Source: Haliotis asinina (Eukaryota). Taken from it: a stretch of DNA of 64,000 bases. Under the pieces are notes generated by a model, which worked only from the letters and a program-made list of their open reading frames with translations, was not told where the DNA came from and searched no databases. The stretch lies in contig NC_090280.1 in the NCBI RefSeq assembly GCF_037392515.1, forward strand, positions 54,365,037-54,429,036, given 5' to 3'. How positions within the stretch are numbered: the first letter of the stretch is position 1; the number at the start of each line of letters is the position of its first letter. A program made the translations under genes and the position numbers. Positions 8,281-61,816 of this stretch are shown in pieces.

Positions 8281-8318
<38 letters not shown>

Positions 8319-8341
8319 GAGAGAGAGAGAGAGAGAGAGAA
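8281..8341. repeat. (GA)n microsatellite, ~30 units with one interruption
   Basis: A run of gagagaga.. is seen directly. Confidence 0.95.
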
Positions 8342-11124: not shown

Positions 11125-11272
11125 CTAGAAACAAACAATCCAATATTCCAGCAATATCACACCGGGCTACATCAGAAAAGGGCTTCACATATTGCACCCA
11201 CGTGGGAAATCGAACCCGGGCCCTCGACGATCGTTGTAACCACTAGGCTACCCGACTACCCCCTTTAGCTTT
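11125..11272 (-). mobile_element. SINE family A fragment (head region), minus orientation
   Basis: The reverse complement gives gggtagtcgggtagcctagtggttacaacgatcgtcgagggcccgggttcgatttcccacgtgggtgcaatatgtgaagccc.. Confidence 0.65.
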
Positions 11273-11934: not shown

Positions 11935-12115
11935 CACGGTGTTTTGAAAGGGCGTAGGGGACTGTAACAACTGATCCCAGTTGCGTAGATCGATGCTCTT
12001 GCAATTGATCACTGGATTGTCTGCTCCAGACTCTATTGTTTACAGACCGTCACCACGTACCTGGAATATTGCGGAGTGCAGCATGTAACTATATTCACTC
12101 ACACGCGCATACTTG
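11935..12115 (+). mobile_element. SINE family B copy (diverged)
   Basis: ..gatcccagttgcgtagatcgatgctcttgcaattgatcactggattgtctgctccagactctattgtttacagaccgtcaccacgtacctggaatattgcggagtgcagcatgtaactat.. Confidence 0.6.
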
Positions 12116-12423
12116 AGCCGATACTGGTCCATATGCGCTATATACTTTAAGATAGTGAGAGATCTACTTACAATAAAACATTGTGCAGAGAATCTTTCAT
12201 ACCTATATGAATACAAAGTTATTTACTTCGTGTATAGAAGTGTTTGACTCCACGCTGCACGAAGACCCTCGAGATGTCCCGGCCGATACAATATCATCGT
12301 TGAGGACACTGATTCAAAACGTCTGCTTCAAACAGTGTACTCATTTTGGGAATCGAACCTTGGTCATCGTTCATGACGAGCTAAAGATTTAACCACAAAG
12401 CTTCCCTGCGTCTACTCTCTTGC

Positions 12424-12592
12424 AGACACGGGTAGCGTAATGGTTATAGCATTCGCTCGTCACTCCAAAGACCCGAGTTCGATTCCCCACAAGGGTAAAA
12501 CGTGTGAAGCCATTTTCTGGGAGTCCCCGCCGTGATGTTGCTGGATTATTGCTAAAGGCGGCGTAAAACTACATACTCACTCACTCTCATTC
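12424..12592 (+). mobile_element. SINE family A copy
   Basis: gggtagcgtaatggttatagcattcgctcgtcactccaaagacccgagttcgattccccacaagggtaaaacgtgtgaagcc..gatgttgctggattattgctaaaggcggcgtaaaactacatactcactcactc. Confidence 0.8.
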
Positions 12593-14394: not shown

Positions 14395-15027
14395 ATAATC
14401 CACATCAGCAGCAAATTATGGTTCTTCATGATCCATACTCACTGAACACGTGTTCATGATCCCTATCCAACATGGAGCGTTGTAATAAACCATATCCACT
14501 GAGATAGTCGTGGAGCATAATGAACAGTACTCACACTGTACACGTGTTCATGATCCATATCCTACATGAAGCGTTGTAATAAACCATATCCACTGAGATA
14601 GTCGTGGAGCATAATGAACCATACTCACTGAACAAGTGTTCATGATCCATATCCTACATGGAGGGTTGTAATAAACCATATCCACTGAGACAGTCGTGGA
14701 GCATAATGAACCATACTCACTGAACAAGTGTTCATGATCCATATCCTACATGGAGGGTTGTAATAAACCATATCCACTGAGACAGTCGTGGAGCATAATG
14801 AACCATACTCACTGAACAAGTGTTCATGATCCATATCCTACATGGAGGGTTGTAATAAACCATATCCACTGAGACAGTCGTGGAGCATAATGAACCATAT
14901 TCACTGAACACGTGTTCATGATCCATATCCTACATGGAGGGTTGTAATAAACCATATCCACTGAGACAGTCGTGGAGCATAATGAACAGTACTCACTGAA
15001 CAAGTGTTCATGATCCATATAATACAT
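14395..15027. repeat. 92-bp tandem array (~7 units)
   Basis: ORFs 14548, 14640, 14732, 14824 and 14916 sit exactly 92 bp apart and have identical translations. The unit is ..tgttcatgatccatatcctacatggagggttgtaataaaccatatccactgagacagtcgtggagcataatgaaccatactcactgaacaag. Confidence 0.9.
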
Positions 15028-15047
15028 GGGGGGGGGGGGGGGGGGGG
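15028..15047. repeat. Poly-G homopolymer (20 nt) terminating the 92-bp array
   Basis: The G20 run is seen directly. It is unusual in an AT-rich genome and may be a G-quadruplex or polymerase-slippage site. Confidence 0.9.
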
Positions 15048-38664: not shown

Positions 38665-39625
38665 TTTGATAACAGTGTTAGTACCTGCACTGGAACATCA
38701 CTCATTTGATAACGGTGTTAGTACCTGCACTGAAACATCACTCACTTGATAATGGCGTCAGTACTTACACCGAAACATCATTTACTTGATAACGGTGTTA
38801 GTACCTACACCGAAACATCACTCACTTGATAGTGGCGTTAGTACTTACACCAAAACAGCATTTACTTGATAATGGTGTTAGTACCTACACAGAAACATCA
38901 TTTACTTGATAATGGCGTTAGTACTTACACCAAAACAGCATTTACTTGATAATGGTGTTAGTACCTACACAGAAACATCATTTACTTGATAATGGCGTTA
39001 GTACTTACACCAAAACAGCATTTACTTGATAATGGTGTTAGTACCTACACAGAAACATCATTTACTTGATAATGGCGTTAGTACTTACACCAAAACAGCA
39101 TTTACTTGATAATGGTGTTAGTACCTACACAGAAACATCATTTACTTGATAATGGCGTTAGTACTTACACCAAAACAGCATTTACTTGATAATGGTGTTA
39201 GTACCTACACAGAAACATCATTTACTTGATAATGGCGTTAGTACCTACACAGAAACATCATTTACTTGATAATGGTGTTAGTACCTACACAGAAACATCA
39301 TTTACTTGATAATGGCGTTAGTACTTACACCAAAACAGCATTTACTTGATAATGGTGTTAGTACCTACACAGAAACATCATTTACTTGATAATGGCGTTA
39401 GTACTTACACCAAAACAGCATTTACTTGATAATGGTGTTAGTACCTACACAGAAACATCATTTACTTGATAATGGCGTTAGTACTTACACCAAAACAGCA
39501 TTTACTTGATAATGGTGTTAGTACCTACACAGAAACATCATTTACTTGATAATGGCGTTAGTACTTACACCAAAACAGCATTTACTTGATAATGGTGTTA
39601 GTACCTACACTGAAACATCACACTC
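38665..39625. repeat. Minisatellite: 116-bp unit (two diverged 58-bp half-units), ~8 units, ~0.96 kb
   Basis: The unit catcatttacttgataatggcgttagtacttacaccaaaacagcatttacttgataatggtgttagtacctacacagaaa repeats with near-perfect identity. Confidence 0.9.
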
Positions 39626-41289: not shown

Positions 41290-42715
41290 ACCAAGACTGA
41301 ATTGTTTACATGGAAGTCTGTAATCAAAAATAGTTCACCATTTCAAGAACTGTCAACGTGTTCATGGAACAGAGAAAATAATGCATCATAAAAACCTGTA
41401 AATAGCAAAAGGCACCACTTTGAGGTCTGCCACACATAGCTAACAAGTTACACTGACAGATATTAAGACGTTTTTGAGTTCTGCTCTGGAAATGAAACAC
41501 ACCTCTCACTTTTGAGACTATATCTGAAACATGTCCATGGAAACCAAGAAAATAATAAATCACAAAAACCTGTAAATAGCAAAAGGCACCACTATAGGTT
41601 CAGATTGATGTATCTACAAAGTTTTGCAGAAAAACATTTTATGGTTTTTGAGTTCTGCTCCAGAAACAAAGCCCATCCCTCCATTTTGAGACTTTTGAGA
41701 CTGTCCGAAACGTTTCCGTGGAAACCAAGAAAATAATAAATAACAAAAACCTGTACATAGGAAAAGGCACCGCTTCAGCTTCTGACTGATATATCTACCA
41801 AGTTTTGCAGAAAAATATTGAACGGCTTTTGAGTTCTGCTCCAGAAACGAAACACACCTCTCACTTTTGAGACTGTGTCCGAAACGTTTCCATGGAAACC
41901 GAGAAAATAATCAATCACAAAAACCTGTATATAGCAAATGGCACCACTTTAGGTTCTGATTGATATATCTAGCACATTTTGCTGAAAAATATTGAACGGT
42001 TTTTGAGGTCTGCTCCGGAAACGAAGTCCATCCCTCCATTTTGAGACTAAGTCTGAATTTCCATAGAAACGGAGAAAATAATAAATCACAAAAACATGTA
42101 AATAGCAAAAGGCACCACTTTGGGGTCTGCCACACATATCTATTAAGTAACACTGACAGATATTAAGAAGTTTTTGAGTTCTGCTCTGTAAACAAAACAG
42201 ATCTCACTTTTGAGACTATGTCTGAAACATTTCCATGGAAACCTAGAAAATAATAAATCACAAAAACCTGTACATAGGAAAGGGCACCACTTCAGCTTCT
42301 GACTGATATATCTACCAAGTTTTGCAGAAAAATATTAAACGGCTTTTGGGTTCTGCTCCAGAAACGAAACACACCTCTCACTTCTGAGACTATGTCCAAA
42401 ACGTTTCCATGGAAACCGAGAAAATAATCAATCACAAAAACCTGTATATAGCAAAAGGCACCATTTTAGGTTCTGACTGATATATCTACCAAGTTTTGGG
42501 GAAAAATATATAACGGTTTTTGAGTTCTGCCCCGGAAACGAAGCCCACACCACCATACGACTAACACCAAAATGTTCCATGGAAAAACAAAAAAATTATA
42601 AATGCCAAAAATCTGTAAATAGCAAAAGGCACAACCATAGTCTGAGATTACTACTTCTATCACATTTGGTCTAAAAAGTATTGAACGGTTTCTGAGTTAT
42701 GCTCCGGAAACAAAA
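41290..42715. repeat. Satellite-like tandem array, ~175-180-bp unit x8 (~1.4 kb)
   Basis: The landmark cacaaaaacctgta(a/c/t)ata(g)caaaaggcacca recurs at 41382, 41561, 41741, 41921, 42093, 42259, 42432 and 42609, with the conserved block ..gttctgctccggaaacgaaacacacctctcacttttgagactatgtc(c/t)gaaacgtttccatggaaacc(g/a)agaaaataat(c/a)aatcacaaaaacctgta. Confidence 0.85.
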
Positions 42716-46360: not shown

Positions 46361-46714
46361 CTGGAACAGAGGAACATTCTCTTGGATGGCAGGAACAATA
46401 GCAAGAGTTGGATTAGGGTTGGTGCTACCTTGACTAGAAAGGTGGGGGTCTGAGGACCGTCTGATCTGGTGGACAGTGGTCATGACTCTTGAAGGTGAAA
46501 TAACAGACACAGTAAACTACTCTCTATGTACTGAAAGTGCGTCTCTCCAGACGTGACATATAAGGTTTTCTCTATCGTTTTATTTCAGTTGTGCATGTTG
46601 GGGGCAAATTTCTTTGTTGTATAAAACTCTGGTAGACATTTCCAAGATGCAAACATTCCATGCAAACATTCCATGCAAACATTCCATGCAAACATTTACT
46701 GAAGAATTATGCAC

Positions 46715-46837
46715 CTGTGTGGCATTCCTGACAGTTGAGAGTCTGTGAGCGATGACGATGACCGTTCTTCCCTTCATGGCGCGGTCTATGGCCTCCTGGA
46801 CCAGGTGTTCACTCTCAGCATCTAGGGCACTGGTGGC
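46715..46837 (-). CDS. ABCB8: ABCB8-like exon B (Walker B / D-loop / H-loop)
   Basis: The acceptor is tcttacag|GCCACC and the donor CAG|gtgcat. It reads [41 protein letters not shown] (41 codons) in the frame of ORF 46580..46855. Confidence 0.85.
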
Positions 46838-47033
46838 CTGTAAGATGATACGCATGTACAGAGATGAAACAAATATGACTTCATGATGAAATCACCTGCA
46901 TAGTGAGGAAGACTGAGATTTTAGCTTAACATTACTCTCATGCATTTTTCCAGCTAAAAGATGGTGGTCAGTAAATGACTGAACACAAGCATTGATCTTC
47001 GCCATTAGATTATGAAGCCAGTGCTGTTCTCAC

Positions 47034-47204
47034 CTCATCCAGCAGCAAGATAACCGGGTCCATGATGAGGGCTCTAGCGATGGCTATCCTCTGCTTTTGG
47101 CCCCCGGACAGTCTCACCCCCCTCTCCCCCACCTTAGTGGAGTAGCCATCCTCAAAAGACGTGATGAACTCGTGAGCGTTTGCTTGCTTGGCCGCATCTT
47201 CAAC
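47034..47204 (-). CDS. ABCB8: ABCB8-like exon C (ABC signature LSGGQ)
   Basis: The acceptor is ttgattccag|GTTGAA and the donor GATGAG|gtgaga. It reads [57 protein letters not shown] (57 codons), compared with human ABCB8 [41 protein letters not shown]. Confidence 0.85.
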
Positions 47205-47711
47205 CTGGAATCAACACAATGATTCTGAGACATCAAGGTAAAGATACCATACACACAGATGCCCATGTTTTAATCTAGAACTGTTTCAGCATGGTGTACT
47301 AGAGCTGCAATGAATTCACAATGTGAAGAATATGACACATATCATGAATACTGGCTAATGAGTACAAATCTTGGGAATCTATTATGAATATTGCATACAA
47401 ATACAATAACAAGTCCCCAGTTGATGTTTTATTCAAAATATTCATTGATACAACGATGAAATATGCATCTTGCAAGTTTTGATGACACTGAAAGTGTTCA
47501 TTTATCTTGGCGCTGCTGTATTCGAGGCATGAGTTGGTGATGGTGGTGATTTTGGAGAAGTAGTGGTTGCTGACTTTGTTCGTGTTGACGATGTGGATAT
47601 CGTATGTATTTGATAATGTATCAATGACTAAATTGCTGCCAGTGGACCGTCTCCCAATATGTTATTGTTGAGTATTATGCAGTGTTCAGGAGAAAGAGAA
47701 TGGATTGTCAT

Positions 47712-47880
47712 ATGCCTTGTTTAAAGTGAGTGAGTGAGTTTAGTTTTACGCCGCTTTTTAGCACCAATATCACGGTGGGGGACACCAGAAAATGGGCTTC
47801 ACACATTGTACCCATGTGGGGAATCAAACCTGGGTCTTCGGCGTGACATGCCAGCGCTTTAACCACTAGGCTACTCCACC
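47712..47880 (-). mobile_element. SINE family A copy in an ABCB8 intron, minus orientation
   Basis: The reverse complement gives gggtagcctagtggttaaagcgctggcatgtcacgccgaagacccaggtttgattccccacatgggtacaatgtgtgaagcccattttctggtgtcccccaccgtgatattggtgctaaaaagcggcgtaaaactaaactcactcactcac. ORF 47708..47923 is SINE-encoded. Confidence 0.85.
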
Positions 47881-47954
47881 ATTCCACTTTGTTTAAAGGA
47901 ATGAAGCCTTGGGGAAGGAACACCTAACAATGATTACTGCAATACTGAACTTAC

Positions 47955-48088
47955 CTCTGTGTCTGTAGCAACTTTACCGTAGGCGATGTTTTCTCTGATG
48001 GTGGAGGCAAACAGTGTGGGCTCTTGACTCACCATAGCCATCTTGTGGCGGCACCAGGCCGGGTCAAGCGTCTTCAGGTCATGCCCTC
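47955..48088 (-). CDS. ABCB8: ABCB8-like exon D (Q-loop region)
   Basis: The acceptor is ctgattccag|GAGGGC (phase 1) and the donor ACAGAG|gtaagt. It reads (G)[44 protein letters not shown], compared with human [40 protein letters not shown]. Confidence 0.85.
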
Positions 48089-48858
48089 CTGGAATCAGGT
48101 AATTACATTGATAAAATACAGGTGATGCAACATCTATATCTGGGATAAAACTCTCTCAGTAGTCTACATATTTTAGTACTATTTGTAGTGCGGACTTCCA
48201 GAGCTCTTACAGTCAGGAACCTAATCACTAACACACAAAGTCACTCCGCCAGTGCCATGGCTGCAACAGCTGATGTTTGATTTCTGGTCTGTGGTATTCT
48301 TAGAAACAAACAAGATGCAAAGGTACAATTGTTGATTGATATGTATCATGCCTCACAAGGAAGGACTTATTTAAAGGTGAAATGATTTGTTGCAGACGTA
48401 ACATTACGTTTTTGAGTTATATCCACAAAATTCATTCAGTTGATCAACTTGTTTACCAAACAAATCAGTAAAATATACAGGCATTGTGAGGTTCTTGAAG
48501 TGGACAAATTTGAGGATTGTGTAGTGAGCAAGATCTTGCAGAAAAAAGACTAAAGACCAAAAGCCATTCATTACGATAGGAGTACAACACTATGCCTCTT
48601 ATTTTGCCACCAGAATGAAACTGGCAACAGTGTTTCTGTATGTCTGAAACAGTGTGCCTTCAACTCCTTCCTGGATGGTTTGTGTTGTCAACAACATCAG
48701 AAACCATCCACAGTATCCATGATACAGAGATGACCGTGAGTCAAAGAGCATAATATTGTGAGTTCAGTTGGTATTCTTCACTGCTGCTTTCATTGAGGTG
48801 TAGGATCCATACTCCTTGATCTGAACTATATAACTGTGCTGGAGGCTTCTAGACTCAC

Positions 48859-48985
48859 CCAGTAAGATTCTGCCACTGTCTGGATCATAGAAGCGCTCAA
48901 TGAGACTCACGATGGTAGATTTACCTCCCCCTGATGGTCCAACCAGCGCCACCATCTGGCCAGTATGCACTTTGAATGACAAGTC
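48859..48985 (-). CDS. ABCB8: ABCB8-like exon E (Walker A / P-loop)
   Basis: The acceptor is acttccacag|GACTTG and the donor CTG G|gtgagt (phase 1). It reads [42 protein letters not shown], compared with human ..[33 protein letters not shown]. The frame is that of ORF 48764..48982. Confidence 0.9.
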
Positions 48986-49473
48986 CTGTGGAAGTAGATC
49001 ACCAGTTAAAACATTTCATAGGATGTGAAAGAATGCAGTAATCACATCCCAGTTTATCAAATAGAAAACAAATATCCAGTTTGGTTCAATGACAGTGCAT
49101 CAGTGAATCGATATATTGATTGAGGAAACACGACTAGGCATCGGTCATTGTACACTTGGAGAACCACAATTGTATGAGGTGTTCAGGAGGAGATAGATGT
49201 GTTCTTTAGTTAAATACCATGCTGCCTTGGGAATACAAAACCTTGTCAATGAGGTGCTAGCATGATAATAGTCAAATGATGATCTCACCCCATTCACTAC
49301 TTAGTGAACACAGTTATTTCAAACAATGTCACTTGCCTAACAAGGCAGAACATGCTCCACATGTGCTTCAGTGTCGGGTGGGACTGAAGACCTAGAAATT
49401 CTCAGTTGTTAATCTTCTGAAAGTTATCACCTACCCAATAATTTCAATAAACATAACAAAGTCCTCCTCTTAC

Positions 49474-49535
49474 CTTGAGGACTGTAGTATCAGGGCGGGA
49501 TGGGTAGGTGAAGTGAACATTATCAAACTCAACCT
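49474..49535 (-). CDS. ABCB8: ABCB8-like exon F
   Basis: The acceptor is ttgtttcag|AG (completing the Glu codon) and the donor CTCAAG|gtaaga. It reads VEFDNVHFTYPSRPDTTVLK, compared with human VTFQNVCFSYPCRPGFEVLK. Confidence 0.8.
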
Positions 49536-49915
49536 CTGAAACAAAAACAACATACATCATTTACACCATTTCCTACCAAGGATCAATAAACATAACTATC
49601 TTTTGTGACCTAAATCAAGAAACTCTGAAATACATCTCATACTCGCCATTGAGTATACTTGATTCTGACAGCAGGTTTCAAGTTGGATCCAATACAGTGA
49701 AAGCTGTCTAAACTGGCATCTGTCCAATCCGGCAAGATGTCAACTCCAGCATATACTCTCAGTCCTGTCTGTGCCTTGTCCATTTATGACCAGCTCTACA
49801 ATCCTGCACACTGTTTAAACTGGATTGTTTCCTCAGTCCAGATAAGTGCCGGTTTCGACAGCTTCCATTGTATATTAAATCAAAATGCCAAGATGATTCG
49901 TATCCTGGGTCTCAC

Positions 49916-50009
49916 CTCCATCAAAGGTCAAGGGCACTACTCCACCTTCAAGCGGAACTTCCGGACAGCGATCCATCAGCTTGAAGATTCTTGCAGAAGC
50001 ACCAACAGC
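49916..50009 (-). CDS. ABCB8: ABCB8-like exon G
   Basis: The acceptor is ttattgtccag|GCTGTT and the donor GGA G|gtgaga (phase 1). It reads AVGASARIFKLMDRCPEVPLEGGVVPLTFDG, compared with human [23 protein letters not shown].. Confidence 0.75.
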
Positions 50010-50094
50010 CTGGACAATAATGCCACCATAATAATGTCACCGTAAGTGAAGTTGTGGATCATTTGTGCCAACTATTTATCATTCAGAGTTGTAA

Positions 50095-50300
50095 AGTGCA
50101 CTTTATTGAGTGAGTTTAGTTTTACACCACACTCATCAATATCACAGCTATATGGAAGTGGTCTGTAAATAACTGAATCTGTACCAAGCAATCCAGTGAT
50201 CAACAGTATGAGCACAACTGGGATATGCTGACATGACATGTCAGCAAGTCTGGCCACCAGATCTCATTAGTCAGCTCTTACAACATGCGTGCAGCACTAC
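50095..50300 (-). mobile_element. SINE family B copy in an ABCB8 intron, minus orientation
   Basis: The plus strand reads gagtgagtttagttttacaccacactcatcaatatcacagctatatggaagtggtctgtaaataactgaatctgtaccaagcaatccagtgatcaacagtatgagcac.., the reverse complement of the family-B tail and body. Confidence 0.7.
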
Positions 50301-50499
50301 TGAAGATCAGTTGTAACCCTGATCTTCACTGGGCAAACTTTATTGATGAAGCATATACAATGTCCTATATTCAATCATACAATGTCACATATTAAATCAA
50401 CAATGCATAATTCTTCTTTCACAACTTTTCCCATCAGGTGCCCATTCATTGCTGAGTGAACAGAGGTATACTTGAAATGATGAAATCTGTACAAACTCT

Positions 50500-50575
50500 C
50501 AACTCTCTCTCTTTCTCTCTCTCCCTCTCTCTCAACACACACACACACACACACACAAAAATGAAAAAAAAATAG
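50500..50575. repeat. Compound microsatellite (CT)n-(CA)n-(A)n in an ABCB8 intron
   Basis: ctctctctctttctctctctccctctctctcaacacacacacacacacacacaaaaatgaaaaaaaa is seen directly. ORFs 50375/50446 are artefacts. Confidence 0.9.
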
Positions 50576-50586
50576 GAACATCTCAC

Positions 50587-50660
50587 CTGCATGAAGTCCC
50601 CATACAATGAAGATAGCAATGCAAATGCCATGGCTACCTGCAGAGTGTACAACAGGAAGG
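50587..50660 (-). CDS. ABCB8: ABCB8-like exon H (TM helix 6 region)
   Basis: The acceptor is tctcttgcag|CCTTCC and the donor ATGCAG|gtgaga. It reads (S)FLLYTLQVAMAFALLSSLYGDFMQ in the frame of ORF 50446..50652, compared with human [26 protein letters not shown]. Confidence 0.8.
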
Positions 50661-51106
50661 CTGCAAGAGAAACAAGAGGACTAAGTAAATTGATACCCTA
50701 ACAATGGTAAATTCTTGAAAACACTAACCAGTTATTATGACTGCATGTCAAATGCAATGGTATTTGTGGAGTAAGACCTGCTTTGGATATATGCACTACC
50801 ATAGTTTCCAGTCATGATGGGAATCGAAAACCAAATCCACCATAGAATATGGGAGGATTTGTGGTGAACGATTATCAATTACAATGGAAATCACCAATTT
50901 TAAGGGCTTTCCCCTTTATTTTTCTAATTTGGAAAATTTCTATGAAGAGATCACAAGCTATCAAAAGTTAACCATTTGACACATTGATGTGCCAACTAAG
51001 AAATATTGTACAGTTTTCAATGTCTGCTCCGTCAACATCTTGAAACAGACAGACAAGATGAGTATATGCCTGACCCTGACCCTGACCACTGCCAGGTTAT
51101 ACTTAC

Positions 51107-51235
51107 ACGTGAGGATGCCTGGGGTTATCCCTTGTGCAGCATCACGTGAGTTCTCGTACACCAGTTTGCCACCGTACCATAGCACTGTCACCACAGCAGA
51201 CTGGGCCACTATGCCGATAACACCCTCAAACGTGC
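51107..51235 (-). CDS. ABCB8: ABCB8-like exon I (TM helix 5-6). The 5' boundary could instead be an upstream AG at 51287-88, which would add 17 codons.
   Basis: The donor is ACGT|gtaagt (phase 1). It reads (G)TFEGVIGIVAQSAVVTVLWYGGKLVYENSRDAAQGITPGILT, compared with human [36 protein letters not shown]. The acceptor ccccactgtgatgcag| at 51236-37 is preferred because it gives the ..LALGQ|G|TFEG.. junction that matches the human ..ALFQGLSN.. junction. Confidence 0.65.
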
Positions 51236-51764
51236 CTGCATCACAGTGGGGTACATTCAGGATGCATGAATAGATAAGCAAGTATGCTGCACAGCAAAAG
51301 AAATGCAAGTTTTTGAAAAAAATGAAATCTCATAAGTAAGCATACATGTTTAAGTCTTCCAATTAAAAACTTGACAAAAATCAGTGTTGCATTTCTTTTG
51401 CTGATCAGTATACATTTGTCTCTGACTCAACCACAAAGAAACCTTCTGTTATCTTCCGGAACTGACAAAGTACTCCAAACGACTAAAGTGATGGTGAGTT
51501 TGCTCTGTATTTTCTTGTTTGTTATATGATGACACACTCAGCAGTTGGTTTCCTTATCATCAAGTCATCATCCTCTCATCAGTTACAGTTTTAAATTTTC
51601 AATTCCTAGTTTTTCACATAACCTTGTCTTGATGTCCACACTCAAACTAAAACATTACCTGTTCAAGGGTAAGTAGGAATTAACTTTTCAGTAAGCCATG
51701 CTCGTCAAAAGAGAAGTGAGAAAAATAGTTTTGACACATAACCTTGCCTTCAGCAATATTCAAG

Positions 51765-51905
51765 CTATAAATAATCAAATCTGCACAAGTCTATCCAGTG
51801 ATTGATAGCATGAGTATCAGTATGTTTGACTGGAATTTTATGACATGCATCAAATAAGTCAGCAAACCTGACCACTCTATCCCCTTAGTTGCCTCTTGTG
51901 AGAAA
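51765..51905 (-). mobile_element. SINE family B fragment in an ABCB8 intron, minus orientation
   Basis: ..caatattcaagctataaataatcaaatctgcacaagtctatccagtgattgatagcatgagtatcag..gtcagcaaacctgaccactctatcccc.. is the reverse complement of the family-B body. Confidence 0.6.
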
Positions 51906-52036
51906 CATGACTAGCTAAAGAACAATGGACACAGGAAATGTGAATATATTAATGTTCCTTCAAACAGGAGCAGATCTGAGGGATGTAGCTTTTATTTTGA
52001 AAAATGTAGCTATTAATGTTGGGATGTATTACCTAC

Positions 52037-52225
52037 CTTGACCCAGTGCAAGTTTCCTGCCAACTCTGTAACTTTTGTCAATCTCAGCCCCATACTCGTC
52101 TATAGCCTTACGCTCCCCAACAAACATTCGGACAGTGCGGAGACTGGACAACGCCTCTTCGGCTTGAGTTCCAGCATCAGCTAACCGATCTTGGAAGTCC
52201 TTTCGCAACTTCTTCATGTACTTTC
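52037..52225 (-). CDS. ABCB8: ABCB8-like exon J (intracellular loop 2 / x-loop region)
   Basis: The acceptor is ttttatcatacag|GA (phase 1) and the donor CAA G|gtaggt. It reads (G)KYMKKLRKDFQDRLADAGTQAEEALSSLRTVRMFVGERKAIDEYGAEIDKSYRVGRKLALGQ, compared with human [47 protein letters not shown]... The frame is that of ORF 52029..52268. Confidence 0.85.
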
Positions 52226-52290
52226 CTGTATGATAAAACAATGCCGATATTACCATTCCTACATACACACCCTGTGGTGTCTTTGGGTAT

Positions 52291-52610
52291 CATGTGTATG
52301 TAGCAGGGCGTGGAGTCATCCCACAGATGACATCCTTACCTTGTCAGCTTGCTGACGGGGTTAACCTCTTTGGTCATGTGGACAAGGCGTCCGACTTCGG
52401 ATCAGAGGGTCCGTCATTCAAATCCCAGCACGGGCGTTGGGCGCCAATGTAGCGGCCACAAAATTTCCGAGTCCCGTGCTGGGATTCGAACGACGGACCC
52501 TCTGATCCGAAGTCGGACGCCTTGTCCACATGACCAAAGAGGTTAACCCCGTCAGCAAGCTGACAAGGTAAGGATGTCATCTGTGGGATGACTCCACGCC
52601 CTGCTACATG
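52291..52610. repeat. ~320-bp near-perfect palindrome (foldback) with ~145-bp arms and a ~35-bp spacer; the arms contain a tRNA T-arm-like box (GGGATTCGAACGACGG)
   Basis: The left arm 52291-52435 and right arm 52471-52610 are exact reverse complements. The exceptions are two positions where the right arm has CG (gggattcgaacgacgg) and the left arm has TG/CA (tcattcaaatccc). The centre is cgggcgttgggcgccaatgtagcggccacaaaatttccgag. Confidence 0.85.
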
Positions 52611-53025
52611 TATAATCAGTTTAACAAGAGTTGATAAAGTTTGAAACGGAGTGGCGTATTAAGAATGTCAAAACTGTACTGAAAAGTGTTGACAGGTTTG
52701 GTATGAAATTCAATTTCTATTATCATCAAAACTAATTCTTTTAACATTTCAGCTTTCAAATTCCACTTCTGCAAACATTTCATGTTTGTACACAATACAT
52801 GCCCAACCCGTCACTGACAGAGAGGTTAGTGATGTCATATGATGGTGATGTCACAGTAATTGATAATGATGTCACAGTTGTCTTCTAAAGCATCAAGTGA
52901 TCCAATTGCAACATCTCTCAATATGAACAAAGATGCTTGTTTCCAGTGATTAAGTGATCCATTGGACACCCATCCCCAACCAAGCCCTGCCCAACTTAAC
53001 TTTACTCTCAGTCAGTTGCACTTAC

Positions 53026-53161
53026 CATACTGGACAGCGCCAATGGCCACGACTGGCACCACTGCTAAAAGGACGCCAGTCAGAGATGGGTTCAACACAA
53101 ACATGAGTGCCAGGGAACCAATGATCTGCAGCAAATATCTTGACAACATGGACACATTAAC
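53026..53161 (-). CDS. ABCB8: ABCB8-like exon K (TM helices 3-4)
   Basis: The acceptor is tatctttttcag|GTTAAT and the donor TAT G|gtaagt (phase 1). It reads VNVSMLSRYLLQIIGSLALMFVLNPSLTGVLLAVVPVVAIGAVQY in the frame of ORF 53012..53212. Confidence 0.85.
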
Positions 53162-53918
53162 CTGAAAAAGATAATTAGACAAACTGGCTGAATATACATG
53201 AGAATCATACAATCAAGGTCAATAATTTCAAATTACTTTGAGTGATTATTAAAAAAATATTCTAACGGTATGAATTTAAAATACAATGAGCCAGCAGTGT
53301 TACTGCAATGTGATTCCAGATGTTGAGACGTATCAGATCATTATGTATGACAATTGGAAACTGATTGGTTGAACCGATTCCTTTGAAATCCTTTTATATG
53401 GACAACTGCAAGCAGGATAATGCCTCTGATAGGAAACGACCTGTGGTTGAGCTGGAACTCTGCTCACCCCATTCAAATATATGTGTTTGTCTTTTCTTCT
53501 GTAACCAACTATAGAAGTCTGAACTCAACCTATCCTTTGTCTCTGTCAACGTATTGTTCGTCTTAATTGTGAGCTAATTCCCCAGGTGACCATATCTACA
53601 CATTGACACAGCACCTCAGACCACACTGACCAATATATATGACCCAAGACTGCATCCTTATTCCACTTACAGATCTACCAAACCAGAAAATCCAGGAAAA
53701 GAAAACCAAATGAAAGGATCTTCTTATACTGCTAATGTTGAAATCACAGTCTTTGTTAAGTCACCTTACTCACTCAAATCAAACCTTAAGACACATAAAC
53801 TGTCCTGTCCAATACACTGCTTTTCAGAGACAGACAAACAGACATTTCATTTTCAAATCTGTAAACCAAATCAAAGAAAGCGTTTGACCTAAATAAAAAA
53901 ACATTTTGAAGTACTCAC

Positions 53919-53979
53919 TGTCAGACAGTTCTGGATGACCTGTGTGTCAGAGGACAGACGGTTACACAGTTCCCCAGTT
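53919..53979 (-). CDS. ABCB8: ABCB8-like exon L
   Basis: The acceptor is tctgattacag|A (completing the Arg codon) and the donor ACA|gtgagt. It reads TGELCNRLSSDTQVIQNCLT, compared with human TGQLVSRLTTDVQEFKSSFK. Confidence 0.8.
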
Positions 53980-54084
53980 CTGTAATCAGACAAGGATTCA
54001 GTGATGTGGCATGTTGTTGATGAAGGACATATATTCAATATACATGTTTCTCCTACTTTGTCTTACAGCCCCCAAAGCCTGTAA

Positions 54085-54243
54085 AGATCCGAACCCATGA
54101 AGGTCTGGGATAGAATAGGCCTTTAGCACACCATGCTTGCCATAAAAGGCAACTACGCTTGTCGTTAGAGGCGACTAACAGAATCAGGTCGTCAGGTTTG
54201 CTGACTTGGTTGACACATGTCATTGGTTCCCACATGCACAGAT
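54085..54243 (+). mobile_element. SINE family B copy, 5' portion, interrupted by the DIRS-like insertion
   Basis: ..ggtctgggatagaataggcctttagcacaccatgcttgccataaaaggcaactacgcttgtcgttagaggcgactaacagaatcaggtcgtcaggtttgctgacttggttgacacatgtcattggttcccacatgcacag then breaks. The consensus continuation (..atcgatgctcatgctgttgatcactgg..) resumes at 60137. Confidence 0.7.
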
Positions 54244-54819
54244 TTATTAAAATCTAAATATTTTAGATATTTAAATACTTACCTTACCATAGGTCTTATG
54301 CATATTACCTCAAGCTTCGCTAGAAGAGATCAGACAGTCGTTGATTCGCCATTCCCTGGATGGCTACCTCATGTAATATACGAATGTAGTCACGGAAGTG
54401 ACGTGATCTCCCCTCTCGCGCGAGAGCGCAGAATCCAAAATTCACTTTTACCGCCAACCGGAAGGTCTGAAGAGTCCAAAGTGGGGAGGAGCATCCAGCG
54501 TTGGGAGGGAGTCACCGCCCTATGGTAAGGTAAGTATTTAAATATCTAAAATATTTAGATTTTAATAAATTTTTAACTTACCTTACCATAGGTCTTATGC
54601 ATATGGCTTCGACAGATGGATGGTGGTGTGGACTCCGGAGGACCATCCCTCAGCAAACAGTGCACATGCATCAGGAGAACTTGGGAAACCAATGCCAACG
54701 GTCTCAGGATAACACCTGGAGCAGGGCAAAGAGTAACCCAATAGTACTCCAAAGAAAAAACGACGCACCCTGAGGGTGAGGTTAATCTTAAGACCAACGG
54801 TAAGTAACAGCATTATTAC

Positions 54820-56439
54820 CTAATGGGCGGACGATCGGGTAAGTTGCTGAGCAACTACCAGTGGACCAAATGACTGTAACCCCTCCACATCTTCAACTGC
54901 CAGGTCCCTCAAGTAGTGGGAAGCGAAGACAGTTGATGATTTCCAGAAACAGCCCTCCATGATCTGCGCTACCGTGCAATTTCGATGAAGGGCCATTGTA
55001 GACGCCAAGGCCCTGATCTCGTGCGGGTTATTTGCTACCGGATGAGGCAGGAGCTTGTCGTCGTAGGCAGCCAGGATTGTCGATCTGAGCCAAAGGGCAA
55101 TCGTGTTCCTGTTTACCTCTCCTTTGCAGGTCGACGCAAATGGGATGAATAGTCTTTTGCGGGACCGTCTCCTAGAGGCTGACCTTTTAATGTATCATCT
55201 CAGAGCTCTGACCGGACATAGCAGTTCCTCCTCCAAGTCATGATGACCAAGGATCGTAGACAAAGGAGGGATGGAAAATAACCTGTTGGGCTGCCTGGGA
55301 AGCGGGTTCTTAGCCACAAAGTCCCAGAGCAGACCCAAATGGACTTGTCCATGCCTTGACTGTTCAAAGTGGATCTGTGTGACGTCAAGAGCATGGATCT
55401 CACTGACTCTAGCCGCTGTCGCCAATGCTAGTAGGAAAGCCGTCTTCTTGGATAGGTGTTCAAAAGAGGCTTCCTCTAACGGCTCATACGGCGGTCCTCT
55501 AAGATGTTGTAGAACGACATTAAGATCCCAGGCTAGAGGACGAAACTTGGCCTTCTGGTCTTCCAGCTTGAAAGCTTTGAGAAGCGCAATAAGTTCCGGT
55601 ACCTTGGAGATCTGTTTATCTGACTTGATCACAAGGACAGAATTCAATGCTGACAGATAGGTGCCTAGGGTACTGCCTCAGAGATGTCTAAAGTTCCGTA
55701 GAAAGAGAACTTTGACACAAACTGAGGGGATGCTGCCATAGGATCTTGAGATCTTTGTGCGCAAAAATTCTCGAACGAGCGCCATTTGTCGTCATATAGG
55801 GATCGGGTAGAAACTCTATGCGCGCCAGCTATAACGCTCGCCACGCGCATGGAGTAGCCCTTAGCTATTAACGCCCTCTGCAAATGACCCATGCGTGAAG
55901 ATGGAATCGCAGTGGATCCGGATGCAGTTGTCGACTGTGTGGATGCCGAAGTAGATGCAACCACTCTGGAAGTTTGTATGGTTCTCCGCTTGCGAGCCGT
56001 TGAAGGTCGGGGAACCATGGCCTGGCTGGCCAACAAGGTGCGACCAAAAGCAGTCACAGGTTCTGAGTCTGCTTGACCTTAGCGACCACTTCTGAGAGAA
56101 AGGGCTGGTGGTGGAAACGTGTAAGCATCCAGACCTTCCCACGACAGGGACATCGTGTCGATTGCTCACGCCACCAGGTCCATAAAGTGACTGAGTGGAA
56201 ACCCTGTGCTCCCGGGCGATAAACTTCGCCACTTGAGATGAGTACCCCTTGGCCCTCAAGACTTTCACAGATGGTCCAGGCACAAAGATGAAACCGCGAC
56301 GGAACCAGGTGCAGTGTCCAATTGTGAGGATGGTACAACAATTGGTCCCACTCTGGAAGCCGACTATTTGAAACGTCTCTCGACACAACATATTCTCCGT
56401 TGGTGATAGACGTAGGGGGTGAGATAAGGCGTCTGCCAT
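54820..56439 (-). pseudogene. Tyrosine recombinase (YR, phage-integrase-like) coding remnants of the DIRS-like element, split by frameshifts
   Basis: ORF 55861..56439 and ORF 55665..56057 carry a duplicated N-terminal motif (..KGYSSQVAKFIAREHRVSTQSLYG.. / ..KGYSMRVASVIAGAHRVSTRSLYDDKWRSFENFCAQRSQDPM.., the ST..Y..W..F..WC SAM-like N-domain of DIRS/Crypton YRs). ORF 55195..55647 carries box I (LSKKTAFLLALATAARVSEIHALDV). ORF 54820..55008 carries box II (MALHRNCTVAQIMEGCFWKSSTVFASHYLRD, with the H-x-x-R and catalytic Tyr context). Confidence 0.6.
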
Positions 56440-56556
56440 GAAGATGCAGGTTCCTGGTATGTGAGATACTTTATTTTGGAGGATCAGACTAGACCACGTC
56501 GTAGGGTAGAAACGACAAGTGTAGTAGAGGTCGAGGCCTCCTTGACCCTTGTTTAC

Positions 56557-56823
56557 CTAGAAAGCTACTATTGAGTTGACCGTATGGATCATCAGTAGCT
56601 TGTCTCTCGGTGCTGTCAACCAATGATAGACATGCATCTCCGCTTTCATCTGCAACTGGGTGATGTGAAGAGATTGAGCTCCACTCTTCCAGAATCCTGC
56701 TGCAACCTCCTTGACTAGATAGGCACTCAATCCTTGGAGAGAAGTGTCTACCTGAAGATGGTTGTTGAATGACGGCTCTAATATGTAACTTCCTACGTAA
56801 ACATTGACCAGCGAGCCTACCAC
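56557..56823 (-). pseudogene. RNase H-like remnant of the DIRS-like element
   Basis: ORF 56557..56823 reads ..FNNHLQVDTSLQGLSAYLVKEVAAGFWKS.. (VDTS..GLSAY resembles the RNase H TDAS..G.GA motif). The surrounding frames are broken. Confidence 0.35.
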
Positions 56824-58794
56824 AGGTGTGGTGTCAAGATGTCCAATGTCGATGTCCTAAGGTGACATGAGCAAATCGAGTAGACATTATCACTGACATA
56901 GTGATAACGGACAGAGTAGAGCTTGCTTTTAACATCGCCTTGAACTTCGACCCCCGAACCTGGGACGGCGATGTGATGAATCAAATCCCGCGGAGTTAGT
57001 TAGTCATCCAAGCTGACTTAACAGCCTGATAATGAAGTCCACCTCTCTCAAGATAATCTTGTATGCCGTAAAGATGCGTCATTCTTCGACTTCAGAATAA
57101 CCACGCTGTTCATTATGAATGTGTTGACATTTCAAGGAAGTCTATTTATAGCTGGCTGTCTGTCCGATCAGAAACTGCCATACATCGCTGCACGCCTCCT
57201 GATAGGCAGCGTTGAGACTACTGTTAGAGGATCTCTATGCCGACTAGAGAAATCCAATGCTGCTGTAGACTGCTAGTCTAGAGTGTAAACGACATCTTTC
57301 CATCGTAAATGACTAAGTCACTGCTGACAGCTTCCTTACACTAGAATAATAACAACACATTCTGCGCAGGGCATTGTCCCTCGATGACCAATCAGATCGT
57401 AGATGTAACGCCCCCTGGGATCCTTCGCAAGGTGTTGTCTCTCGGGGACCAATCAAAATGTAGACGTGACGTCACCGGTGTAGCAGGTAACTGATCACCA
57501 TGAAATCTTTTAAACGGTGATACCCTGCTAGCCTGTATGCTTTACAGTAACCATGCTGTTTGGCGAGCACGTGTCTAAATGAGTAAAGCGCGCAAAAACC
57601 CTTCCGCCGCTTGAAACTGATGTAGACAAATTGCTTCCCATGTATATGTGTTGGAATTTTCCCCGAAGATAAATGCTGCCCTCTCTTGTAATAAGAGGTG
57701 TAGTTAGGCGTGGCACTTTGTAGTTGTCTCGAAAAATCTTCGTGACAAAATGCGTAAAGCACGTGAAAGAAAACTTTCTCCGCTTGAAGTATATGTAGAC
57801 AAATTGTAACGTAAGGATCTTCGAGGATGCAGCCAGTCCCTCCAAAGGACACCCAGTCTCACGCCTACCAGCATAGGAATATCTGGTACGGTGATCAATC
57901 CTCGAGGCGTTGTCTTCAGACAAGTCCATCACCGCCGCCGAGGTAGCTGACACCAGCGCAGACAACGGCTTAAGCATCCGCTTGAGTTCAGTCTCAATGG
58001 TCACCCGCTTAGAATCCTGCACTCTGTAAGAGAGCTGCTAGGAGCCCAGTAACCGCTACATAGATTCAACCAAGACAGCCACGCTGTCCGCGAAAACCAG
58101 GCTGTGTATCTTGTAATCTGACTTCTTGGATTTACACGCTTTGAAATTCGGATTAGATGACAATTTTTCAAAGACCGCATCTAATACAGCCACGGCGTCC
58201 GCCACCATAGGATCAGGCGGGACGAGTAGCTCCGGCGATAAATGAAGTGCTGCAGGGTTGCTGGAATGAGCCGAAGGTGAAGGGCAGTACGGTAACCTGT
58301 CAGCAATCCCACTCGAAGACGACTGATAAGGGTAGTTAAGTGCCCTCACCATCGCCGTCGCCTCCTGCCTCCTCGTCGAAGTCCGGGCCAAAAACCTGTT
58401 CTTCCAGGTCCTCCCAGGAAACGGAATTCGAATCACGCCGCAGTGTAGGAGACGAAGTCCATGCATGAGCAGCAGATTCCTTGGACGGGATCCAAGGTGG
58501 GTCCGGCGACCGCAAACGTCGAGTTCTAGAGGAGTGTCGAGGTGATATGGGCTGGGAGCGCAAGTAACGTCTTCACCTGGTAGTAAAGCGAGAGTCCTCA
58601 TTCAAAGGGCGTCGCGGGGACCGAGAGCGCCGACAAAGACTACTGTGGAGGGTACAGGATCGCCGACTCCCTGGGAACCTGGAGCGCGATCTGCGCCGAG
58701 AGCGAACTGCCTCCAAGCGCCGAGCGCGCCCTTCATCCAACTGTCGTTGTAAAACCTCTTCCCTGGACAACGTATGCAACACCCTGGGTATACG

Positions 58795-59035
58795 GTAAGG
58801 CGCAGGCGCTGGCGCTGGCATAGGGTCCGGCGTCGGCATAGGCGCTGGCGTAGGCATGGGCACTAGCGCAAGCACAGCCTCTGGTGCTGGCGTAGACATA
58901 GGCACTGGCGTAGGCATAGGCATAGGCGCAAACACAGGTGCTAGCGTAGGCATAGGCGTTGGCGTAAGCAAAGGCGCTGGTGTCGGCATAGGCGCTGGTG
59001 TCGAGATGTCGAGACGCTGGCATCGCAGCAGCACC
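58795..59035. repeat. 18-bp-period tandem repeat (ggcgctggcgtaggcata-like) inside the DIRS-like element; encodes P/A/M/T-rich peptide repeats on the minus strand
   Basis: The units ggcgctggcgctggcatagg, gtccggcgtcggcatagg, cgctggcgtaggcatggg, cactagcgcaagcacagc .. are seen directly. ORFs 58573..59034, 58733..59083 and 58856..59326 are overlapping-frame artefacts of this array. Confidence 0.8.
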
Positions 59036-60136
59036 GGGCGTCAGGAGAGAGCGCAGGAACCTCTGGACTTCCGGATGAGACAAGGCATCTGGATGAAAAC
59101 CACGATGGAATCCGAGCGAGGTGGTTCCGGGGACAAACGTACAGGCGTCACAGACGAACGCCCCATCCCAGACGTCGGCACAGGCGCTGAAGGCGGTTGT
59201 AAGTCAGGGTCGTCCGGCAGAGATCCCAACGACAACGCTGGAAATGGCAACCTTCTCTTCCGCTGTGAAAAAAAAAAAAAATTTCCTCTTAGCCGCAATA
59301 AAAGTCTTGAAATCCGCCACCAATAACGCCTCGCAGTACTGGCAGTGTCCGTCAAAAGAGCAGGCTAGAGACGCACAATCCGGGCACCAAGGGTGGGGAT
59401 ATTCGCCGATTCCTGCCCCTAGCAGATAGTGCAAAACTGGGGAGACATACACAGTTAAGTGCAACAAACAAACATAATGCGTTGAAACCAACGCTAGGAG
59501 GTAGAAAAAACACCCCTATACCAGAAATGCAGCACCAACGTACCCCCACTGTAAAGTAGGCACGCCCGTAAGCTCGTGACAGCGAAGGCCAAACAACCAA
59601 AATGGCTGTCTGCGTACATCGCAACGTGGCACGAAAAAAACCCATATAAATGCTGTGGAACATGGGCAAAAATACTAATCGACATGGAAAATCACATGGA
59701 GGAAGAAAAAACCAGCAAGATATAATACCCCCACGGACGCCATGCCGCACTCACACACGACACGGGCGAACCCACCCCGAAGTGAGAGAAAAAACAACAC
59801 GAGGTAGCAAAGTAAGTGCAGTTAAAAAATAACTTACCTTAACACGCACACCTAAGGGATACAAACCATACCTACCCGTGAGGAAATAAATTTATTGAAC
59901 CACAAAGTAGCTAAACTAAGCGAACCAAACACGTCCGAACAGACGAACGCTAGAGGTAAAAGTGAATTTTGGATTCTGCGCTCTCGCACGAGAGGGGAGA
60001 TCACGTCACTTCCGTGACTACATTCGTAGATTACATGAGGTAGCCATCCAGGGAATGGCGAATCAACGACTGTCTGATCTCTTCTAGCGAAGCTTGAGGT
60101 AATATGCATAAGACCTATGGTAAGGTAAGTTAAAAA

Positions 60137-60252
60137 TTGATACTTATGCTGTTGATCACTGGTCTATCTGGTCCAGAATCGATTATTTACAGATCGCCAC
60201 CATATAACTGGAATATTGCTGAGTGCGGCGTAAAACTAAACTCACTGACTCA
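60137..60252 (+). mobile_element. SINE family B copy, 3' portion (continuation of 54085-54243)
   Basis: ttgatacttatgctgttgatcactggtctatctggtccagaatcgattatttacagatcgccaccatataactggaatattgctgagtgcggcgtaaaactaaactcactgactcactg. Confidence 0.7.
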
Positions 60253-60299
60253 CTGTGAAGGGCCGAATTAGAATTGATCTTCAGTAACTCACGCTTGTT

Positions 60300-60472
60300 A
60301 TAAGAGGTGACTAAAGGGTTCAGGTAGTCAGTTCTCTAACTGGGTTGTCACTTGTCATTGGTAAGACCAATGCTCATACTGTTGATCACTGGAATGTGAG
60401 GTCCAGACTTGATAATTTACAGATCACCACCCTGTAGCCGGAATATTGCTCAAACTAATCTCACTCACTTAC
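60300..60472 (+). mobile_element. SINE family B copy (second, adjacent)
   Basis: ..agaggtgactaaagggttcaggtagtcagttctctaactgggttgtcacttgtcattggtaagaccaatgctcatactgttgatcactggaatgtgaggtccagacttgataatttacagatcaccaccctgtagccggaatattgctcaaactaatctcactcacttac. Confidence 0.65.
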
Positions 60473-60673
60473 TACTGTCACTTACAATGTCCAAAACCAA
60501 TAATATTTTCTAACTTATTAAAATAATTTTAAGGAAACAGGTGTATTTTCCAAGTCATTTGTGTGGTCTCTCTGGGGTAATAATAATCAATTCTGACTAC
60601 AGTGTTCTGTGAGCAACTATTTAGATGGAAATTTGGCGCTACATAAATGAATTTTCAATATTATAAGTTTTAC

Positions 60674-60848
60674 CTGTTTTGGTCAAAAAATGCAACATCT
60701 TGCTTAATAACTGATCCAAAGAGATCCTTCCGAAGCCTGGCCACGAGTCTCTGTCCTGCCAGCACAAAGAACCATGCCCTCACCATGCCAGCAACAGCAC
60801 CCCCTATGAAGATCCCAAGCAGCACCAGCACAGTTCTGTTAAGTTCAT
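60674..60848 (-). CDS. ABCB8: ABCB8-like exon M (TM helix 2; ends ..AFFDQNR)
   Basis: The acceptor is tgtgtgttgtag|AT (phase 1) and the donor AAC AG|gtaaaa (phase 2). It reads (D)ELNRTVLVLLGIFIGGAVAGMVRAWFFVLAGQRLVARLRKDLFGSVIKQDVAFFDQN, compared with human ..[32 protein letters not shown]. The frame is that of ORF 60670..60861. A 6.7-kb intron separates it from exon L. Confidence 0.85.
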
Positions 60849-61704
60849 CTACAACACACACGATCAGGAGGCTTACATCAAGTCTGTGGTTGTAAATTCA
60901 TCTTGGAAATGAGTTAAATTCACATAATTGATCACTTGATCATCATAACCAATCAATCAATGAAAATAATTGGTCAGTGCCATTTGTCAAATTTTCCTGT
61001 TATCTTTGTTAATGCACACACAAAAAGAACAACTAAACAAAAACACACATTTCTTTGTTTTTTTCCTGTAAATTTCACACAGAAGACTAGCATGTTAATT
61101 AGGAACTCAGATTTACAGGAACCTTTAACATAAATTCAATCATGACTTGGAACAATCTCGTAGTGCTTGTGAAATGTAAATTTAATGACACAGATAAACA
61201 ACATTGAAAAAATATTGATGATGCAAACAAGTGTTCCAAAATTGTTTGTTGTTCAATTACGAGACAACATTATCAGTTGCTCAGTCTTTCAAGCACTACA
61301 ATCAATCTTTAATTATTTCAGTGTATAGGACCACTACCATTGTAAACACACATTGTCTTTCAAGAAGTCGTTAATTGTAACATGTTATATTTGGGAACTA
61401 CCTTTCAGAGTTTGAAATGCACAATACAGGCTTGAAGACACTATGAATAATGTTTACATTTTGCCAAATGTGAAAAACATGAAAGCTGGTATACACTGGT
61501 AGTTGGACAATTTCGTTTAGTATTTTGTTAATGTTTTACATGAATGCAGCTAGTAATGCAATACTTTTTTTGTGTAAACAATTTGAGAACTTCTGTAAAC
61601 AAAGTGTTCTATTCATTTAATTATCATTATTTGTTGTGAAAGTTGATCCTAGCCCTTTATCTATATCTTAGACCAATATCGTAGACCAATGCAGCTGCAC
61701 TTAC

Positions 61705-61816
61705 CCATACTCCTCTGGGCAGCATCGACCACTTTCCCAAAGAACAACGGTCCAAACATACTTGCTGCACTGGACCCCAGCAAAGCCAGGATTCCAACCA
61801 CAAGGAGCCCAGCTTC
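61705..61816 (-). CDS. ABCB8: ABCB8-like exon N (TM helix 1)
   Basis: The acceptor is tgtatttcag|GAAGCT and the donor ATG G|gtaagt (phase 1). It reads EAGLLVVGILALLGSSAASMFGPLFFGKVVDAAQRSM, compared with human LLVLGVAVVLALGAALVNVQIPLLLGQLVEVVAK. Confidence 0.8.

Follow-up and report, generated by a model that had tools for sequence, protein, structure and literature searches.

A defective element, very probably a DIRS1-like retrotransposon, inserted into a SINE within an ABC-transporter intron of an abalone

Introduction

DIRS1-like retrotransposons were reported in molluscs in 2011, in Aplysia (AcaDIRS1/2) and Lottia (LgDIRS1-3) (PMC3266345). A 2018 survey still cites only the Aplysia and Lottia elements for molluscs (PMC6238403), and an abalone genome paper gives only a pooled "Gypsy/DIRS1" class (PMC11393055). 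Here we describe a 5,897-nt (~5.9 kb) segment, positions 54242-60138, of a 64,000-nt stretch of Haliotis asinina DNA (NC_090280.1, positions 54,365,037 to 54,429,036, forward strand; hereafter the window). It is very probably a DIRS1-like tyrosine recombinase (YR) retrotransposon of an abalone-type gastropod, with the minus strand as its sense strand. It adds a defective representative to an already known kind of mobile element and matters mainly as annotation, in a host group where such elements are lumped as "Gypsy/DIRS1" (PMC11393055). It also offers a base-exact example of DIRS1-like integration, with the triplet, the internal complementary region (ICR) and the empty site all visible in one window.

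In DIRS1-like elements, two ICRs overlap on a 3-bp circular junction, and integration is a recombination with an identical genomic triplet that produces no target-site duplication (TSD); most of these elements start and end with ATT (PMC3266345). The Aplysia and Lottia elements have in common with the window inverted terminal repeats (ITRs), two ICRs on a 3-bp junction, a right extension (rE) and identical end triplets, and are 4.7-5.8 kb long against 5.9 kb here (PMC3266345). The closest of them in layout, by published description only and with no sequence comparison, is LgDIRS2, which has the same sense-strand AAT/AAT/ATT polarity as the window and a long conserved ITR of 141 nt against 176 nt here (PMC3266345). 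The window element differs from the Aplysia and Lottia elements in its vetigastropod host, in having no recognisable reverse transcriptase (RT), and in its mosaic structure.

In the founding member, DIRS-1 of Dictyostelium discoideum, an ICR shortly before the right ITR repeats the non-identical ITR tips next to each other, as in the window (PMC7192593). Gene order and target differ. The YR gene of DIRS-1 overlaps and precedes the region for RT, RNase H (RH) and methyltransferase (MT), whereas in the window it comes last, next to the ICR; the preferred targets of DIRS-1 are other DIRS-1 copies, whereas the window element sits in a short interspersed nuclear element (SINE) within an intron. Ngaro, PAT-like and Crypton elements have related tyrosine recombinases and, like the window element, insert without a conventional TSD. 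Ngaro and PAT elements have split direct repeats and neither ITR nor ICR (PMC3266345, PMC7192593), an MT domain after RH sets DIRS1 and PAT apart from Ngaro, and Cryptons have no gag, RT or RH, whereas the window element combines ITRs and an ICR with gag, RH and MT-like remnants.

Results and discussion

Repeats were searched over window positions 53500-60800. A single long inverted pair was found, formed by 54277-54452 (the sense-3', or right, ITR arm; minus strand) and 59955-60130 (the sense-5', or left, arm; minus strand), which are 176 nt long and 99% complementary with two mismatches (54378/60029 and 54419/59988). Outside the right arm lie 32 extra bases, the rE (54245-54276, minus strand), which are 100% complementary to ICR positions 54519-54567; they occur at the sense-3' terminus only, the other terminus being without them and the ICR holding a copy. 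The ICR itself comprises 86 nt (54519-54604, minus strand), lies 66 nt inward of the right ITR, and is 100% complementary to both outer tips. One half (54519-54570) pairs with the tip at 54242-54293 over 52 nt (blastn E 2e-22) and the other (54568-54604) with the tip at 60102-60138 over 37 nt (blastn E 4e-14). The halves overlap by exactly 3 nt, AAT at 54568-54570, which represents the circular junction.

On the plus strand, ATT is both the first triplet of the element (54242-54244, within the perfect complement of ICR 54568-54570) and the last (60136-60138), so that the sense strand has AAT at its termini and ATT at the junction. The last triplet and the outer 5 nt of the sense-5' tip (together 60131-60138) are the perfect complement of ICR 54568-54575, and on both sides the complementarity between tip and ICR breaks off at the base adjoining the triplet. 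A chance origin of the terminal and internal repeats was ruled out by the blastn E-values, and no further copy of the ITR or ICR was found anywhere in the window. The two ICR halves are also able to pair with each other as a hairpin.

An initial annotation, made from the letters of the window, had placed the element at 54244-60136; with both triplets included it extends to 54242-60138. Its ~215-bp ITRs were rightly described as inverted and as having two mismatches, but the ITR measures 176 nt and the rest is a one-sided 35-nt extension (54242-54276). The 80-bp internal segment that it gave as complementary to both tips (54520-54600) was recovered, with perfect complementarity, as the ICR. The annotation had also named direct long terminal repeats (LTRs) as a finding that would contradict its reading, and the only long terminal repeats present are inverted. 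The split direct repeats (A1-B1 ... A2-B2) of Ngaro and PAT elements are likewise absent; the direct repeats that do occur are internal or belong to the palindromic overlap of ICR and tip. A Gypsy or other LTR identity was rejected on both repeat architecture and gene content.

The insertion site could be reconstructed from the same window. When the flanks are joined (...54241 + 60139...), six other ~260-bp SINE copies in the window match uninterrupted across the junction, and the interrupted repeat is colinear with all six, both in its 5' part (54093-54241, plus strand), the insertion target, and in its 3' part (60139-60254, plus strand). The SINE consensus at the site is GCGCAG-ATC-GATGCTC, and the occupied site reads CACAG-ATT-[element]-ATT-GATACTT. 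One AT(C/T) stands at the insertion point in each of the six copies, which are paralogues within the window and not the orthologous site. Since the uninterrupted SINEs carry a single AT(C/T) and the element has ATT at both ends, there was one triplet before the insertion and there were two after it, while the ICR holds one. This pattern is the published DIRS1-like integration signature, with no fill-in TSD.

The split of one SINE copy, as first annotated, is thus supported, and with it the proposed chronology of intron, then SINE, then DIRS element. The accompanying statement that there is no obvious TSD is correct as regards a fill-in duplication, but it passed over the shared 3-bp junction, visible as ATT at both ends, one AT(C/T) in the SINEs and AAT in the ICR.

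SINE families are known in Haliotis (PMC4758252). No match was obtained over the whole window with Rfam (gathering threshold) and ARAGORN, and the head of the SINE was not tied to a tRNA. A second, 5'-truncated copy of this SINE (60262-60450), with the same orientation, directly adjoins the interrupted copy within the intron. Elsewhere in the window, 5612-5942 and 5897-6150 form a tandem array with 6.9 copies of a 49-bp SINE-head unit that runs into a full SINE copy, the 5' region of the SINE having turned into a minisatellite there.

The conceptual YR translation of the element had 214 relatives, and the named top matches were uncharacterised proteins of Haliotis cracherodii, H. asinina and H. 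rufescens. Through the YR match we reached an intact DIRS1-like element of H. cracherodii (L001; JAJLRC010000006, a 70-Mb scaffold, 6188-12508). It has ITRs at 6189-6379 and 12285-12475 (191 nt, 99%), an ICR at 12120-12204 that is complementary to both tips, and three open reading frames (ORFs), namely gag (6827-8791), pol (RT-RH-MT, 8571-10736) and YR (ending at 11788); its pol matches the Pfam families RVT_1 (E 3.6e-19) and RT_RNaseH. Three further relatives, on metagenome contigs (L002-L004), have pol ORFs with RVT_1 upstream of YR. L001 and the window have in common the order ITR, gag, RT-RH-MT, YR, ICR, ITR and an A/T-rich junction. They differ in that L001 starts with ATT on the sense strand and the window element with AAT, and in that RT, part of MT and the end of gag are missing from the window copy.

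The intact relatives also allowed the ends to be compared. The shared junction motif of L001 is ATTTTT/AAAAAT; L004 ends with AAT, and ATT begins its right ICR. L002 stops short of the ICR, and its 3' end gave no alignment. An ICR core (AAGT.AAAAATTTA.TAAAATCTAAA.TATTTT) is common to the window (54519-54604), L001 (12120-12204) and L003 (4350-4429). Between the window and L001 this core is 85-86% identical, against 66-72% for coding DNA, and conservation above that of coding DNA would fit a cis-acting site. The rE is ~85% conserved relative to the right tip of L001.

Three observations concern these relatives only. The YR-encoding frame of L001 (8876-11788) is open for 970 codons and overlaps nearly the whole pol ORF (8571-10736); no long ORF overlaps were reported for the mollusc DIRS1-like elements (Piednoël et al. 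2011, PMC3266345). A tandem repeat that is open on both strands (peptide NIQSNRTHVLGxC) lies at 4783-5272 of the same scaffold, ~1 kb upstream of the H. cracherodii element. A fragment of a piggyBac-type transposase (DDE_Tnp_1_7) occurs at 8433-8717 of L004, ~3 kb downstream of its DIRS1-like element.

The coding remnants of the window element, all on the minus strand, were located by tblastn with the ORFs of L001 as queries, and the YR maps overall to 56069-54838. Its catalytic part (54838-55710) contains two in-frame stops and is 67% identical to the YR of L001 over 291 aa (E 6e-130); the YR is 83% identical to that of P0009, a protein of H. asinina. The catalytic residues R164, K197, H293, R296, W319 and Y329 are all kept, and all fall in invariant columns of an alignment with 11 relatives. 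The N-terminal part, of core-binding type (55698-56069; YR aa 179-302 of L001, 46% identity), lies in a frame different from that of the catalytic part, and the ORF is broken by two in-frame stops and one frameshift. The minus-strand YR fragments of the initial annotation were therefore real.

Upstream of the YR on the sense strand, an MT-like C-terminal part of pol (55877-56180; pol aa 619-719 of L001), with a frameshift and stops, is 49-76% identical to L001, L002, L003 and P0009 in tblastn and was recovered by a pol profile with independent E-values (i-E) of 3e-25 and 6e-9. Next to it, at higher coordinates, lies a diverged second copy of the segment that spans the pol end and the YR start (copy a, 56164-56359): pol 688-719 and YR 243-276 each match twice (profile i-E 1e-6), and copy a and its counterpart, copy b (~55985-55765), have ~65-70% nucleotide identity. 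A strongly degenerate RH remnant occupies 56347-56811 (30-40% identity to five references; profile i-E 5.5e-13 and 6.4e-10; tblastn match to L001 RH at 56772-56347). In alignment with P0009 its catalytic E and one D are replaced (NNLELQ to ITQLQM and ASDNS to IHTVNS), and it contains a stop. The RNase H-like motif first noticed here thus belongs to a homologous remnant, but a degenerate one, which on these replacements would be catalytically dead.

Of the 5' genes, the pre-RT N-terminus of pol is left as a remnant at 57790-57892 (L003 pol aa 50-83, E 0.002; L001 pol aa 87-106, E 0.3). The C-terminal half of a gag-like ORF1, with two stops, lies at 57891-58307 (L001 gag aa 368-506, 38.6% identity, E 3e-23; L003 gag, E 1e-13). 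The N-terminal Cys-motif of gag gave a weak match at 59419-58976, and the gag ORF is broken. Within gag, 58786-59009 is an 18-nt periodic repeat rich in Pro, Ala, Thr and Met (direct-repeat family D1; TRF array 58888-58998), and a similar PTPM-rich stretch is present in the gag of L001. The hallmarks of DIRS1-like elements that are found in the window are therefore ITRs, overlapping ICRs, an rE, a shared triplet, a YR with the catalytic residues and a gag-like ORF1. The DIRS1-type reading of the initial annotation is backed by the repeats themselves, by an intact homologous element in a congener and by the reconstructed empty site.

The stretch in which RT is expected (56812-57789, minus strand) showed no significant RT similarity by Pfam, tblastn, tblastx or the pol profile. 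No sense frame of the element matched RVT_1 at E<=1, and aa ~120-440 of the L001 pol had no match on either strand of the whole window (tblastn, up to E<=50). tblastx of 57040-57890 against L001 was empty, and tblastn with the pol of L002-L004 did not find RT either. With filters off, a profile of four pol sequences was significant only from profile position 403 on (RH and MT-like); its RT part gave only weak colinear matches, at 57892-57833 (i-E 0.24) and 57060-57007 (i-E 0.6). The unrecognisable stretch (~57790-56811) measures ~979 nt, against an RT length of ~948 nt in L003. Since no RT was recognised in it, the window copy is filed as a defective, non-autonomous derivative by descent and not as an autonomous member. 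The refuting condition set with the initial annotation, a lack of RT/YR homology in any genomic copy, is answered by the relatives L001-L004, which carry both. Two pairs of internal direct repeats lie inside the stretch, a 61-nt tandem pair with 74% identity (57359-57476) and a pair of ~65 nt, 171 nt apart and 77% identical (57570-57806).

The decay of the element is uneven along its length. Identity to P0009 is 32% in RH, 70-76% in the MT-like region and 83% in the YR, whereas P0009 and L001 are evenly related (pol 61%, YR 69%); RH identity stays at a low 30-40% with each of the five references, whether their YR is close or distant. The better-preserved part begins directly downstream of copy a, at pol aa ~587-619. 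An old, decayed 5' part (gag, RT, RH) thus appears to meet a younger 3' part (MT-like, YR, ICR) near 56165-56180, with the 56164-56359 segment as the likely breakpoint between the decayed and the better-kept part.

Between the two ITR arms, 2 of 176 positions differ, and between ICR and tips 0 of 89, a total of 2 in 265 nt. The element has a GC content of 0.50 and a CpG observed/expected ratio (o/e) of 0.85, against 0.39 and 0.48 in the rest of the window, and the contrast in CpG o/e fits a short residence of the element. Because the redundancy of ITR and ICR has diverged by at most ~1%, change after the insertion cannot explain the mosaic decay; and because the ends are so little diverged and the duplication is old, the defects and the duplication probably predate the insertion. 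With no recognisable RT, an apparently dead RH, a partly deleted MT-like region and a broken YR, the copy would be unable to move alone.

The replication pathway of the family was established for Dictyostelium DIRS-1 and has been generalised to the superfamily. In this pathway, a sub-genomic RNA undergoes reverse transcription, and missing ITR sequence is restored using the other ITR. The outermost tips are restored from the ICR, which stores both ends joined at the 3-bp circular junction. The circle is then integrated by the element's tyrosine recombinase through a crossover between the junction triplet and an identical target triplet, leaving a triplet on each side of the element and no fill-in duplication. 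For the window copy, a defective recombinant template would have been copied and integrated fairly recently, with autonomous relatives providing RT and recombinase in trans. In DIRS-1, the ITRs and tips are regenerated in every replication cycle, the RT acts in trans on a truncated element, and the ICR is experimentally essential for retrotransposition (PMC7192593). Because ITRs and tips are regenerated in each cycle, recent trans-mobilisation of an already defective template is the simplest account of pristine ends on a decayed interior, and on the sequence evidence we consider it rather likely.

Several points weigh against this account or against the assignment beneath it. No second copy of the exact family was retrieved in exact-ORF look-ups of two window ORFs and of P0009, and with one copy only, the trans-mobilisation of a defective master is read from a single case. 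In principle, the likeness of the ITRs could also be maintained if one arm converted the other. Since the unrecognisable stretch is RT-sized and has weak colinear matches, extreme decay is possible, and it may be as possible an explanation of that stretch as replacement. In the three sense frames of the element Pfam recognised only Phage_integrase (E 3.8e-5), below the gathering score (24.0 against 27.1 bits); the YR of the intact L001 is equally sub-threshold, so this shortfall says little. Finally, no Pfam family matches the MT-like region, even in the intact pol of L001, and its methyltransferase nature is putative.

The copy might instead have been autonomous when it inserted, its RT region, its RH and the 56164-56359 duplication being products of later local rearrangements or foreign insertions that the ends escaped. 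One large deletion, duplication or nested insertion can kill a domain without raising the substitution level, and the RT-sized unrecognisable stretch and its two repeat pairs (57359-57476, 57570-57806) do hint at rearrangement. The point-wise decay, however, is itself uneven (RH 30-40% against YR 67-83%), which an ITR divergence of ~1% cannot account for, and the duplicate copies, at only ~65-70% identity, indicate a duplication far older than the insertion. We therefore regard damage after insertion as unlikely.

An old insertion that decayed in place, with the identity of ITRs and of ICR and tips kept by gene conversion and not by recent replication, appears less plausible still. Inverted repeats 5.5 kb apart can convert, and the interior is heavily decayed. 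Against this, three independent redundancies are near-perfect (the ITR of 176 nt and the tip-ICR pairs of 52 and 37 nt), and tracts as short as these are unlikely to be converted; the YR, with only two stops, retains 83% identity to a relative; and a CpG o/e of 0.85, against 0.48 in the host, argues against long residence. This course of events is therefore very improbable.

That the element belongs to another YR group, as a Crypton DNA transposon or an Ngaro or PAT retroelement, can practically be dismissed: the YR families are interrelated and no RT is detectable in the window copy, as in Cryptons, but its gag, RH and MT-like remnants have homologues in the same order in RT-bearing elements, its termini are inverted and accompanied by an ICR instead of forming split direct repeats, and intact DIRS1-like relatives share its conserved ICR core.

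The copy could stem from a lineage of RT-less, recombinant, non-autonomous DIRS1-like elements in which only the ends and the ICR are still functional, perhaps along with a YR that was so until recently, and which is still mobilised in trans in an abalone genome; we judge the case for such a lineage to be evenly balanced. If it exists, metazoans would have a natural equivalent of the truncated DIRS-1 that was mobilised experimentally in Dictyostelium. Pristine cis-elements around an interior that is dead and mosaic suggest that trans propagation of non-autonomous DIRS derivatives is possible in animals, and that selection acts on the ICR and the tips.

The element lies, in the same orientation as its host gene, within a gene for an ABC half-transporter on the minus strand (46700-61810; Walker A at 48940, Q-loop at 48032, signature at 47111, H-loop at 46753), and exons for the transmembrane domain (TMD) flank it on both sides, as expected from the initial placement in an intron. 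The upstream exon of the ABCB half-transporter (60674-60848, minus strand; TM2 ... AFFDQNR) ends in the donor CAG/gtaaaa, and the downstream 61-nt exon (53919-53979, minus strand; TGELCNRLSSDTQVIQNCLT) has the acceptor ttacag and the donor gtgagt. The reading frame is continuous across the intron (CAA AAC AG/A ACT GGG), which runs from the donor at 60674/60673 to the acceptor before 53979, ~6.69 kb. Before the insertion it would have measured ~0.8 kb with two SINE copies. The 5.9-kb sense-oriented insertion thus enlarges a ~0.8-kb intron eightfold, 260 nt upstream of a 61-nt exon, and could matter for splicing.

The host gene had been labelled ABCB8, which is probably wrong, as judged from phmmer scores against PDB chains. 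With the TMD only, human ABCB10 scored 170 bits and human ABCB8 104 bits; with the TMD and the nucleotide-binding domain (NBD) together, ABCB10 scored 390 bits and ABCB8 354 bits. The gene therefore probably resembles ABCB10. When the NBD and the TMD were searched against proteins, no named orthologue from Haliotis came up, so that the choice between ABCB10 and ABCB8 rests on the PDB sequence scores.

Further tandem arrays occur elsewhere in the window, at 38666-39620 (periods of 40/80 bp), 14428-15033 (92 bp) and 41355-42711 (174/355 bp).

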